Source: Candidatus Hermodarchaeota archaeon
GTDB taxonomy: Archaea; Asgardarchaeota; Thorarchaeia; Thorarchaeales; Thorarchaeaceae
Length of the DNA: 64,000 nt
Assembly (NCBI GenBank): GCA_048885865.1
Contig: JBHLLF010000014.1
Span: 1-64,000, forward strand
Reading direction: 5' to 3'
The notes beneath the pieces were generated by a model, which had not been told where the DNA came from, made no database searches, and worked only from the letters and a program-made list of their open reading frames with translations. The translations under genes and the position numbers were made by a program. Positions 263 to 3,374 of this stretch are shown here, in pieces; positions within the stretch are counted from its first letter, which is position 1, and each line of letters opens with the position of its first letter.

Positions 263-360
263 CCCTATGTGAAGTATCTATAAGCAGGCCACAGCCCTCA
301 CCAGCCCGCTTAGCATGAATATACCTTAAGATGATGTTCATCATGGACCTTGAGGAATCA
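263..360 (+). repeat. Copy of ACAD promoter and 5' end (distal)
   Basis: gaagtatctataagcaggccacagccctcaccagcccgcttagcatgaatatac matches 2061-2114; followed by ATG GAC CTT GAG GAA TCA (MDLEES vs native MHFEES). Confidence 0.9.
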
Positions 361-525
361 GTTGTAGAGAGAATTCTACTCAGATAATGCCTATGAAGTC
401 CAGTAGTAAGTCTTCGGCCTTCTTCACGAAGGAACTATACTCAGAAGATATAGAATCATCTCTAGACAGGGAGATTTTCACACCATCTCCAAGTTGCATT
501 TGCCAAGCTCTTTCCAGTATATCTC

Positions 526-924
526 TCAGCTACCTCTAAGCTGCATATACACATACAAGTACAATATGAGGAACATCACAAGAAGACCAGTGGTTAGCCA
601 ACCAGCAATTGGCAATGTCATGACCGCCATGTTCCAGAGGATTCCAATTGCCCCAAGCAATGTCCATATGATTGACATCAGGACGTATATTTTGACATCC
701 TTCCATGATTCAGCACGATAGGCCAAGAACGCTCCTAGCACGTAGCTCAGAAGAATTGCGCCTAGGACACGTGTAGTACTGATCTCTAGGGGCCAACCAG
801 TCAGGTCGCTCCATGACTCTGGAGAGAGGAAATACCAGGCTCCAAATATCAATGAAGCGATACAGCCTAGCAGAAAGATATACCTTGCATAGCTGGGGAG
901 TTCCCCACTCATTTCTGTCCACAC
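526..924 (-). CDS. Small multi-pass membrane protein, similar to 5406-5795
   Basis: ORF with about four hydrophobic segments; GW..RVLGA..W.DVK motifs echoed in 5406-5795; start may be ATG 912. Confidence 0.75.
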   Translation of the reverse strand: MWTEMSGELPSYARYIFLLGCIASLIFGAWYFLSPESWSDLTGWPLEISTTRVLGAILLSYVLGAFLAYRAESWKDVKIYVLMSIIWTLLGAIGILWNMAVMTLPIAGWLTTGLLVMFLILYLYVYMQLRGS

Positions 925-1046
925 TCTCCGATAATCATCATTTATTCATCTAAGTTCCTTATTTTTTTTACGAGATGCCTCTTGGGGACCATATGCCTAT
1001 CATTTGATATTACTAGCTTATTCGCAGGCACGTTAGACACCTCATA

Positions 1047-1131
1047 CGAACCATCTATAAGCAGGCCACCGCCCCCAACAGCCCACGCAGCATGAATATA
1101 CGTGCAGAGGGAGTTTACGATGTACTTCGAA
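1047..1131 (+). repeat. Copy of ACAD promoter and 5' end (proximal)
   Basis: atctataagcaggccaccgcccccaacagcccacgcagcatgaatatac...agtttacgATGTACTTCGAA vs native 2066-2144 (MYFE vs MHFE). Confidence 0.92.
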
Positions 1132-2049
1132 CTACCTAGGTAGAGATGGAACCGGATTCCCCTTTTCGCGTAGTCGTAGAACCATAACAAAAACCCAAGT
1201 CAGACAAATTATCACAAGGGATGCAATCTCATTTGCTGTCCGGTACAAATACGTGAACATAATGAACATTGATTGATGTGCGAACATGGCTGTTAGTACA
1301 TTTCGTTGGGATAGATTGTACATAGAATCGATGGCGAAGGAATGGCTCAGCATCGAAAGATATCCAAGAAGAGTTGGATATATACCAAATGAGAGATTTG
1401 ACATCTGATGCCAAAGCCACCAGTACGAGCCAATGATCAAGCTGCCAATCTCACGACCAAACTTCGCCTGCAATAGGGGAAGAGCAAATCCTCGCCATCC
1501 AGGTTCCTCGAGGAGAGGGCTTGATAGAAGACCAGGAAAGAAGGTCAATGGGATAATTGGAATCAGAGCAAGACCCAATTCAGCAGGCCCAGGACTGAGT
1601 AGATTGAGATGGGTTTCAAGCCCAATTATATAGTTCAAGATGTTTCCAATAGTGCATATCAGAGGAAGAGCAATGGCCGCTAGAATCAGCCAGGAAATGC
1701 TGATTCTCCAGTTCTTTGCAGTTAGAATTGTCTTTGTGAGATAGGCCTCATCACCAGTGTACATCTCTAAGACCCAGAGAGTAAGCACCGGTGATATGCC
1801 CCCGAGCGTCGAGGGGATAATAATCAGTTCAGCTGGCCATATTCCCAATACCATCTGGACCCACCAGATCCATGCCAGAGGGATGACCATTAGGAAGAAG
1901 AGGGCAAGTTTGTGTTTTGATATAAAGTCGTCCACTTTTCTTAGATTGCCCCCTATCATATTCTGCAGCTTGCTGGATATGATGGGGATTTGTGATACTA
2001 CGAGATATGAAGATTTTGGCCTGGCTGTGCTCTTTTTTTCGTTGCTCAC
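1132..2049 (-). CDS. CPBP (CAAX/Abi) intramembrane glutamic protease
   Basis: EEPGWRG motif, WWLWH, AMFAH; multi-pass hydrophobic. Confidence 0.9.
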   Translation of the reverse strand: MSNEKKSTARPKSSYLVVSQIPIISSKLQNMIGGNLRKVDDFISKHKLALFFLMVIPLAWIWWVQMVLGIWPAELIIIPSTLGGISPVLTLWVLEMYTGDEAYLTKTILTAKNWRISISWLILAAIALPLICTIGNILNYIIGLETHLNLLSPGPAELGLALIPIIPLTFFPGLLSSPLLEEPGWRGFALPLLQAKFGREIGSLIIGSYWWLWHQMSNLSFGIYPTLLGYLSMLSHSFAIDSMYNLSQRNVLTAMFAHQSMFIMFTYLYRTANEIASLVIICLTWVFVMVLRLREKGNPVPSLPR

Positions 2050-2060
2050 CAGCCCGATGC

Positions 2061-2132
2061 GAAGTATCTATAAGCAGGCCACCGCCCCCAACAGCCCGCG
2101 TAGCATGATTATACATTTAGAGGTAGTTTACG
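2061..2132. promoter_or_regulatory. Divergent promoter region for ACAD and the upstream CPBP gene
   Basis: TTATACAT at 2109-2116 about 24 nt before ATG 2133; TTATAGAT on the minus strand (2073-2066) about 24 nt before GTG 2049. Confidence 0.55.
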
Positions 2133-3374
2133 ATGCACTTTGAAGAGTCGGAAGATGAAAAGATGTTCCGCGAGATGGTGCGTGATTTCGCTCAGAAATA
2201 CGTCGCACCGGAGTGGAAAAAATACGATGAGGAAACTCATGAGATTCCTAGAGACCTCATCAAGAAGATGGCGGAGCAAATGCTCTGGGCACCAACTGTC
2301 TCGGAGGAGAATGGTGGAGCTGGCCTCTCCTGGGTGATGGCGTGTATAGCCGCTGAGGAGCTGGCAAAGGCGGACCTCTCCATTGCGCTCCCAGTCATGT
2401 ATCTCGTTGAGGCCTCCTGGGCGTTTATCTTTGACAAGTACGGCACAGAGGAGGCAAAGAAGGAGATTCTGCCCAAGGTCTGTAGTGGAGACCTGTTCTT
2501 TGGGATCGCCACGACTGAACCCACCGGTGGTTCTGACCTCGTCAACTCGACCAAGACCACCATCAAGCCAAAGGGCGATGGCTTTGTCATAAACGGTGAG
2601 AAGGTCTACATTTCTGGCGTCAACGAGTCTGAGAAATATGGTGGTGTATATTGGACTCTTGCGAAGTCTGACCCCAAGGGCGACCACAAGGCCTTCGATG
2701 CGTTCATTCTGCCCCTCAACATGGGTGACGGGTTGCACCCTGGTATCACAACCACTCTCTTCGAGGACATGGGTCGGATGGGGGTCTCTTGCGGTGGATT
2801 CAACATCGAGGATGTCGAGATTCCCAAGCATTACCTGATCGGCGAGCACGGTCGCGGGTTCTATCACGCAATGGAAGGTTTCTCAGCAGCTCGCGTCTTA
2901 ATCGCTGCAACCTGTCTCGGCGCTGCACAAGCCTGCTTCGACATCGGTGTTGACTACGTCAAGCAGCGAAAGCAGTTCGGTCGACCACTCGCAGCCTTCG
3001 AGGGTATTCAGTTCGAGGCTGTAGACTCATGGATGGCATTGCAGGGCGACAGGCATATGACCTATCATGCCGCTTGGATGATGGACGAGTTCTACGGAAA
3101 GGGCAATCCCAATTACAACAAACTCGATATCGCCAAGTACACAGCAGCTGCTAAGTACAAGGCACCTCATGATGCTCTTGACATTATCACTCGCGCAATG
3201 ACGTGGCATGGTGCTTTTGGTTACTCCAAGGAGTGTCCACTTGAGGCATCCTACAGAGGCGTGCGTTCATATACGGTCGGGGCTGAGGGTGGCAGTCATG
3301 TCCAGAAAATCGTAATGGCGAGAGAGATATTCGGACCTGACTATCTGCCGTACAGGCAAGAGAAGCAAATGTAG
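2133..3374 (+). CDS. Acyl-CoA dehydrogenase (anchor gene of the cassette arrays)
   Basis: ATTEPTGGSD, INGEKVYIS, RKQFGRPLAAFEGIQF, HGAFGYSKE, AEGG..VQKIVMAR motifs. Confidence 0.97.
   Translation: MHFEESEDEKMFREMVRDFAQKYVAPEWKKYDEETHEIPRDLIKKMAEQMLWAPTVSEENGGAGLSWVMACIAAEELAKADLSIALPVMYLVEASWAFIFDKYGTEEAKKEILPKVCSGDLFFGIATTEPTGGSDLVNSTKTTIKPKGDGFVINGEKVYISGVNESEKYGGVYWTLAKSDPKGDHKAFDAFILPLNMGDGLHPGITTTLFEDMGRMGVSCGGFNIEDVEIPKHYLIGEHGRGFYHAMEGFSAARVLIAATCLGAAQACFDIGVDYVKQRKQFGRPLAAFEGIQFEAVDSWMALQGDRHMTYHAAWMMDEFYGKGNPNYNKLDIAKYTAAAKYKAPHDALDIITRAMTWHGAFGYSKECPLEASYRGVRSYTVGAEGGSHVQKIVMAREIFGPDYLPYRQEKQM
3309..3374 (+). repeat. Native ACAD 3' end; master copy of the 66-nt repeat
   Basis: atcgtaatggcgagagagatattcggacctgactatctgccgtacaggcaagagaagcaaatgtag. 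Confidence 0.95.

Follow-up and report, generated by a model that had tools for sequence, protein, structure and literature searches.

The 5' side of an acyl-CoA dehydrogenase (ACAD) gene is the subject of this report. The gene lies near the start of a 64,000-nucleotide (nt) stretch of DNA (the window) from a member of the Thorarchaeaceae deposited as Candidatus Hermodarchaeota archaeon (GenBank assembly GCA_048885865.1, contig JBHLLF010000014.1, positions 1 to 64,000). The analysed assembly comprises 3.58 Mb and is 87% complete; it is labelled G000 where it is compared with relatives, and the window is the start of its contig C14. ACAD (2133-3374, plus strand) encodes 413 amino acids (aa) with the Pfam domains Acyl-CoA_dh_N, _M and _1. 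In front of it stands a row of other genes, each boundary of which is marked by a displaced copy of the ACAD gene's own beginning, and the row continues beyond the left end of the window. It is read below, tentatively, as the trail of a gene whose 5' end has been replaced several times over.

What is repeated was defined by an alignment of 21 ACAD upstream regions from the family. These native heads share a conserved archaeal promoter, in which a transcription factor B recognition element (BRE), CGAAG, and a TATA box, CTATAAG, lie some 70 nt ahead of the ATG; a variable leader follows, next a ribosome site, GAGGT, conserved at about -13 to -9, and last the ATG with the first codons. The repeated unit is the whole ACAD head: promoter, 5' leader, ribosome site and first codons. 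In the window the native head (R0) occupies 2053-2149 on the plus strand, with its outer edge at 2052-2055, the BRE at 2060-2064, the TATA box at 2068-2074, GAGGT at 2120-2124 and the ATG at 2133.

A repeat search of the window returned a single family, made up of three direct copies (263-359, 1040-1136 and 2053-2149), the upstream two being 80% and 71% identical in ungapped comparison. BLAST with the native head against the assembly gave 86% (E 1e-23) and 80% (E 2e-19) for the upstream copies and added two partial copies on another contig, C110. The original prediction, made from the letters of the window alone, had reported both upstream recurrences with coordinates that proved right to within about 7 nt, as well as their different coding ends, which can be read directly in the sequence. 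The nearer displaced head, R1 (1040-1131, plus strand; E 3e-14, 86% identical to native), retains a relic promoter and a ribosome site and is cut at +12, ending ATG TAC TTC GAA (MYFE, 1120-1131). The farther one, R2 (263-359, plus strand; nhmmer E 5e-17, profile positions 9-122, to about +32), has a relic promoter and a decayed ribosome site and ends ATG GAC CTT GAG GAA TCA (MDLEES, 342-359), where the native gene has MHFEES; its relic ACAD frame meets a stop after 14 codons. R2 is 88% identical to the native head in alignment columns 9-66 and 61% in columns 67-125, so that the greater divergence of its 3' half, also noticed at the outset, holds. A pairwise alignment that carried R2 homology out to +72 was set aside: beyond +18 it is no better than shuffled sequence, and R2 is rated as extending to about +18 to +32.

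One cargo gene, a single long open reading frame (ORF), fills each interval between copies, as had been stated. Between R2 and R1 lies a gene for a small membrane protein without a Pfam family (526-924, minus strand; 132 aa from a GTG, with a likely start at the ATG at 912). Between R1 and the native head lies a gene for a CPBP/Rce1-like membrane protease (1132-2049, minus strand; Pfam PF02517, E 6e-6), which is 305 aa long if read from the GTG at 2049. Its real start is probably the ATG at 1961, giving about 275 aa; a 59%-identical homologue in relative G065 aligns only from residue 28, and the ATG corresponds to residue 30-31. From that ATG to the head edge there is a 91-nt spacer. The joint between R1 and the CPBP gene, as read from the sequence, is a perfect 12-nt palindrome, CTACCTAGGTAG (1132-1143). 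It stops reading frames in both directions, the minus-strand gene and the relic ACAD frame (MYFELPR and a stop) alike ending in LPR and a stop. At the left end of the window, 1-135 (plus strand) is the 3' end of a further cargo gene of about 168 aa without a Pfam family. It starts on C110 (L025 3591) and forms the cassette between R3 and R2.

The last 77 bases of C110, a contig of 4,039 nt, are an exact overlap with positions 1-77 of the window (L025 3963-4039). Because an ORF crosses this overlap, and an 80%-identical homologue in the genus-mate G048 is colinear through the join, C110 is taken as the upstream neighbour of the window; the join itself depends on an assembly-graph overlap. The break falls within an array cargo gene, and the 77-nt exact overlap suggests an assembly-graph branch, that is, population variation at this point. 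The upstream search that the original prediction proposed brought three more head copies on C110, at about 385, 808 and 3423, located by a six-way alignment and a profile search. Searched with the profile, the whole assembly holds exactly six head copies (E 4e-26 to 2e-19), spread over about 6 kb, and no other copy below E = 1. From distal to proximal the row reads: c33 CPBP protease (+), R5, a 62-aa membrane protein (+), R4, an 808-aa DUF6259 protein (+), R3, the protein of about 168 aa (+), R2, the 132-aa membrane protein (-), R1, the CPBP protease (-), and R0 with ACAD. Each of the distal three copies has a plus-strand gene 70-130 nt beyond it. No nuclease or recombinase was found among the cargo by Pfam scans, and an Rfam scan of the window start and C110 gave nothing relevant.

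Identity of the promoter half to R0 falls with distance, from 0.88 in each of R1, R2 and R3 to 0.81 in R4 and 0.74 in R5, and the resemblance between adjacent copies is greatest at the distal end of the array. An assembly artefact was considered and rejected: the copies differ by 12-26%, and the same arrays occur in independent assemblies (G061, locus L109; metagenome contigs L119 and L140). A genome-wide regulatory motif was rejected as well. A regulatory element shared by many unrelated genes and lacking ACAD codons, named at the outset as what would overturn the observation, is not what is seen; the copies carry start codons, and all six in the genome are confined to this one array.

The orientation of the promoter bears on what the copies could do. 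The conserved BRE and TATA box (CGAAG..CTATAAG, 2060-2074) face ACAD, and the TATA-like boxes facing both ways that the original prediction described are a sequence impression only. Its further suggestion, an outward, Pc-like promoter serving the newest cassette, is not supported. The minus-strand cargo genes, the two proximal ones that point away from ACAD, have their own spacers of 91-128 nt with A/T-rich boxes, the CPBP gene probably starts near 1961 and not at the GTG at 2049, and displaced promoters decay as the displaced start regions do. The last point comes from a comparison of 36 native heads with 25 displaced copies, at the columns where the native heads show at least 90% invariance. 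At these columns native heads mismatch in about 2% of cases, displaced copies 4-5 times as often, in 8.0% for the BRE/TATA block and in 10.5% for the ribosome site, ATG and codons, the two blocks being no different from each other (Fisher p = 0.28). Young displaced copies may still be firing as promoters.

The least probable of the explanations weighed here is that a promoter module was copied in front of cargo genes for co-regulation with ACAD, its start codons being incidental. It would account for the plus-strand genes that follow the three distal copies at 70-130 nt, and for a truncated head that stands directly before c33 or the c8 operon in relatives G052, G002 and G085. It sits poorly with the ACAD codons that displaced copies retain (up to 41-45), with the many displaced copies that precede minus-strand genes, and with the lack of any copy elsewhere in the genome. 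Nor would it predict that BRE/TATA positions decay 4 times faster than in native heads, or that the TATA box is mutated in R4 and R5, although plus-strand genes follow both.

Displaced copies decay like pseudogenes, as relics of working heads, and several are closer to the native head of another population than to that of their own genome. At L148, positions 1-175 are 97% identical by BLAST to the native head and 41 codons of L133, while L148's own native gene is 88% identical. Two other displaced heads, compared over profile columns, score 0.94 and 0.96 against a foreign native head and 0.63 and 0.76 against the native head of their own genome. One short displaced copy scores 0.98 against a foreign native head, on a stretch that has no native head of its own for comparison. 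In this genome c33 and R5 are colinear with c33, native head and ACAD in the genus-mate G048; R5, the oldest visible copy, was therefore once a working head with the same left neighbour. Judged from the sequences, the head arrays show a gene end replaced by an incoming version with the old end left alongside, as WHO elements do.

The arrangement is frequent in the group, one to a few unrelated cargo genes lying between neighbouring copies. Relatives were represented by metagenome-assembled genomes (MAGs) of Candidatus Thorarchaeota, and profile searches covered their loci together with 40 metagenome contigs. When the upstream neighbours of ACAD were compared, displaced heads, 1-5 to a locus, were present in 12 of the 27 non-redundant ACAD loci whose upstream sequence extends for at least 1 kb, and more were found on contigs without an ACAD gene. 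In Thorarchaeota SMTZ1-45 (G061) the array consists of four cassettes of one gene each, every gene on the minus strand, and it recurs in independent assemblies; the cargo was labelled by eye from the sequence as membrane protein, ICMT-like, GNAT-like and epimerase-like. At loci lacking an array, a divergent methyltransferase gene is the usual upstream neighbour. ACAD orthologues occur in 36 of 61 family genomes, at 80-96% identity, and frequently lie at contig ends, where a population-variable locus would be expected. As to the enzyme itself, its nearest relatives outside Thorarchaeota are Anaerolineae (Chloroflexota) proteins at 50-54% identity. Within Thorarchaeota the protein is 96% identical to that of a MAG of another genus and only 81-87% identical to those of some genus-mates.

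ACAD alleles are mosaic, the closest relative shifting window by window along the gene, and R0 is mosaic too. Its promoter half groups with R1-R3, and from about -30 into ACAD it resembles G018 (94% identical in the -30 window, 89% in the next). Since the halves of R0 differ in affinity, crossovers within the head do occur. The 5' halves of R1-R3 are each 88% identical to R0 and 76-81% identical to one another, and their 3' parts are of another allele type. Cargo is shared between genomes in differing order: c33, tm62 and later p190 in this genome, tm62-head-c33 in G052, and p190-c33-native head in G048. The right-hand joint between cargo and head is constant across genomes for tm62 (this genome and G052) and for c33 (this genome, G048 and G052), and left-hand joints differ: there is no head to the left of tm62 and c33 in G052 and G048, and p190 has a head stump on its left in both this genome and G048, cut differently (+8 against a remnant of about 17 nt).

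These comparisons bear on an integron-like shuffling without an integrase, in which circles would loop out between heads and re-enter at any head by a Campbell-type crossover, the native head never being displaced. Host RadA-type recombination, or a trans-acting recombinase recognising the promoter block, would be the agent. The altered cassette order among genus-mates (c33 then tm62 here, tm62 then c33 in G052) is what it would predict, as are the crossovers inside heads implied by 5' halves of R1-R3 that are nearer to R0 than to one another; it would also suit the sharp outer edge of the heads and the minimal block (profile positions about 9-43) that all copies keep. We nevertheless consider it unlikely. 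The truncation point is not constant for a given right-hand cargo, as p190 illustrates, the tm62 and c33 cassettes without a left-hand head do not fit, no recombinase was found, homologous stretches of 40-100 nt that are only 75-90% identical make a poor substrate, and the origin of the first head-cargo joints is left unexplained.

The edges of the displaced heads are unlike each other. Among 51 non-redundant heads anchored on the promoter, the outer edge, at (G)CC.NAT.CGAAG, is a step of 1-3 nt over which information content climbs from about 0.1 bit to about 1 bit, and the 40 nt outside that edge carry no signal. The in-gene edge is ragged. In 25 displaced copies it ranges from -55 to +128 relative to the ATG, about half of the copies ending between +1 and +30, and no fixed recognition or cleavage site was found to bound it. 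How long a remnant is shows no relation to how closely it resembles extant alleles (Spearman -0.06, p = 0.77), and the same coefficient gives no support to a progressive shortening of longer stumps with age. An in-gene edge that is ragged and unrelated to age is consistent with joints that arose one event at a time, not at a single cut or crossover site. The two longest stumps (L148 1-260 and L133 1344-1610), which stand in different cargo contexts, end at about +129 and +135, no more than about 10 nt apart; L148 has a burst of mismatches in the final 25 nt ahead of the joint. In G048 (L108, about 9745-9765) there is a likely 17-nt outer-edge head stump, GCCTGATGCGCAGTGCC, with 14/17 matches, about 40 nt before the p190 cassette, and it suggests that heads can erode almost to nothing.

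ACAD has cargo arrays at both ends, as the original prediction held, and the tails on the 3' side are built differently. The native ACAD tail (3307-3382, plus strand) is followed by repeats at 5184, 9754, 10492, 12171, 15018, 17028 and 17629, the stretch with tail copies being 3307-17731. Across 54 displaced tails pooled from several loci, all start at profile positions 163-205, 45 of the 54 at 163-181, and most end at 275-310, so that a displaced tail extends from about -70 to +50 around the ACAD stop codon with both edges sharp. The tail array shares genome, anchor and kind of cargo with the head array, and no enzyme was found for it either. The tail unit looks site-defined, the head unit defined on its outer side only. 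Hence the image of mirror-image arrays is inexact, and head and tail sides may not share one mechanism. Of the earlier view that a general, homology-anchored mechanism is preferable to a single att site, one part has held, in that neither an integrase nor an att-type fixed crossover was found on the 5' side.

A search for candidate enzymes gave little. In this genome, at 87% completeness, there is no match to Phage_integrase (PF00589), Cas1 or LAGLIDADG_3, and TnpB gave matches below cut-off only. None of these four families gave a match on the array contigs of G061, G065, G034 and G085; Cas1 was not found in the five genomes, and no TnpB was found near any head array. An IntI-type recombinase next to the array was sought with PF00589, on the array contigs and in Pfam scans of the cargo, and not found. 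Nor were attC-like hairpins: the copies contain no inverted-repeat pair, and the boundary is a direct copy of the ACAD head, 74-88% identical to native. Two further proteins were considered and dropped as leads. One, c31 (295-332 aa), whose gene precedes ACAD in one genome but follows it in a second, gave no Pfam, NCBIfam or Atlas lead; the other, c30, is an apparently secreted protein of exonuclease-III fold and not a homing enzyme.

Integrase-borne islands of the dusA type, which target a gene's 5' end, could in principle have been stacked in tandem and reduced by decay to single genes. The topology would be the same, in that island DNA restores the gene and a remnant 5' end stays behind on the far side (PMC4482086). 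It is a highly improbable account, given that neither this genome nor the array contigs of four relatives yielded a tyrosine recombinase, that the cassettes are 0.4-2.6 kb with one ordinary gene each, that there is no fixed short att repeat and that the in-gene edge is ragged; a dedicated integrase with short att repeats at a fixed 5' site is not what the locus displays.

Nuclease-driven homing, by a WHO-like protein or an RNA-guided enzyme, is decidedly unlikely. Element-free alleles would be cut near the ACAD start, and repair would copy in the cargo together with a resistant head. Incoming heads and alleles are divergent, as in the arms race described for WHO elements (bioRxiv 10.64898/2026.08.13.744650), the two longest stumps end near each other, and relatives' genomes contain many TnpB genes. 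Moreover, a fast-evolving protein of 600-1,073 aa (c9) with a LAGLIDADG_3 domain is encoded directly behind the ACAD stop, convergently, in 16 loci (L066 13317-16535 on the minus strand, L056, L069, L117, L121-L123, L134 and others), and in L056 a displaced tail copy lies beyond it. This neighbour is, however, confined to the tail side in the 16 loci, none of which has it on the head side, and it has no homologue in this genome, where LAGLIDADG_3 gave no match and TnpB only sub-threshold ones. No nuclease gene was found in any head array, and a homing cut would not be expected to leave in-gene edges that scatter across about 180 nt irrespective of age.

The explanation preferred here, with a probability of about 0.45, is serial displacement: cargo and a replacement head would be inserted together at the ACAD start, by a recombination event anchored by homology in ACAD and completed by an illegitimate joint in the resident head. 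The array would grow stepwise at its ACAD-proximal end. Incoming DNA from a related strain would consist of a cargo gene, its adjoining head and part of ACAD; homologous recombination would take place inside ACAD or inside the conserved promoter block, and an illegitimate joint would tie the far end of the incoming DNA to the leader or first codons of the resident gene. That gene's previous head would thereby become a stump pushed upstream, and the incoming head would take over expression. Once several heads were in place, they would act as short patches of homology for the reshuffling of cassettes between strains. No dedicated enzyme would be required, and a trans-acting one would be possible. 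By the features legible in their sequences, namely a conserved anchor, serially orphaned ends and mosaic or foreign alleles, the head arrays have the marks of displacement arrays.

Several observations weigh against serial displacement in this form. Random illegitimate joints do not explain an outer edge that is sharp to 1-3 nt in 51 copies, with cargo genes by the dozen, unrelated to one another, meeting the promoter at one and the same nucleotide; this nucleotide-sharp edge hints at some further site-specific step. No in-gene edge lies farther than about 130 nt from the start codon, in a gene of 1.2 kb. Uniformly placed joints would have left longer stumps, and because the edges are confined near the start, a hot-spot for breaks or selection against long stumps must be added. 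The joints, though variable in position, are too old and diverged for microhomology to be read. Tails with two sharp edges, together with the LAGLIDADG-bearing gene behind ACAD in 16 loci, mean that a site-specific agent does act at the ACAD locus, on its tail side; and at 87% completeness the assembly may be missing an enzyme gene. Finally, the available pairs of loci do not separate displacement of a resident head from arrival of a circular cassette.

A broader proposition is offered with less assurance still, as a possibility that we would sooner doubt than accept. Thorarchaeota would have a general, previously undescribed way, perhaps enzyme-free, of letting single-gene cassettes dock at the two ends of conserved genes. 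Docking at the 5' end would swap in a new promoter and start and strand the old ones; the array boundaries would be copies of host control regions, which would then provide portable homology for shuffling from strain to strain.

Gene-cassette arrays are known from integrons, where an integrase is needed, and from toxin loci, where 3' ends are displaced. Like an integron, the head array lines up single-gene cassettes at a fixed platform and marks each of their boundaries with a repeated element. Unlike one, it has no IntI and no attC hairpins, the repeat is the neighbouring gene's promoter and start, and cargo stands in either orientation. A parallel in mode of growth is offered by the arrays of Rhs toxins and of Vibrio type VI secretion system (T6SS) effector-immunity modules (Kirchberger 2017, PMC5361080). 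There too an anchor takes in adjacent modules and the old ends are pushed out as an orphan row. Those arrays also have mosaic alleles and do without an integrase, and the mechanism proposed for them is homology-facilitated illegitimate recombination; C-terminal displacement of Rhs toxins is credited to Jackson 2009, as cited in PMC5361080. Those arrays form at 3' ends and consist of toxin tips and immunity genes under selection, whereas at ACAD it is the 5' end that is displaced, promoter included, the cargo is ordinary and accessory, and the host is an Asgard archaeon.

The WHO elements at FBA1 in Torulaspora and Lachancea yeasts (PMC7282813; bioRxiv 10.64898/2026.08.13.744650) resemble the head arrays in that the replacement end keeps the gene intact, older ends and elements cluster, and incoming ends are divergent in sequence. 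They replace the gene's 3' half, and each encodes a LAGLIDADG endonuclease with a defined 28-bp cut site; the head arrays lack both a nuclease gene and a fixed in-gene edge. Islands specific to dusA (PMC4482086) likewise insert in the 5' end of a gene, replace that end, probably with its promoter, and leave a remnant. They differ in being large, with a dedicated tyrosine integrase and 21-bp att repeats, and in usually being single insertions, whereas at ACAD no integrase was found, cassettes hold one gene, repeats are 40-220 nt long, and as many as six copies follow one another. Aloposons of Heimdallarchaeia were also considered and are unrelated, being tRNA-targeting elements with giant genes.

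No published description of such 5' head arrays was found in the literature searched. What is new here is a displacement array at a 5' end, in which promoter and start are displaced, which is frequent in Thorarchaeota and whose edge pattern is unlike that of the tails. An ordinary Asgard metabolic gene collects accessory genes on its 5' side and leaves a dated trail of former promoters. The combination of a sharp outer and a ragged inner edge is a concrete constraint on any mechanism. If the process is general, it would provide a mechanism for the large, flexible Asgard gene pool and explain why MAG assemblies break at such genes; it would also supply a natural series of "fossil" promoters and starts for studying archaeal promoter decay.

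Two minor observations may be added. The first cargo gene on the tail side of ACAD (3487-5142, minus strand) encodes a 551-aa SBBP beta-propeller protein and has internal DNA repeats of about 192 nt. Elsewhere in the assembly, other arrays of direct repeats of 50-140 nt fence one to three genes each, many of them at contig ends: on C13 (31, 1871, 5756), C106 (1, 1267, 2607, 3403), C42 (16492, 19066, 21816), C20 (77, 2064), C19 (7537, 8703, 11287) and C1 (103430, 105404). The repeat on C106 is a gene tail with a T-run, and that on C20 is promoter-like (CGAAAGCCTAATAAGCAGG).

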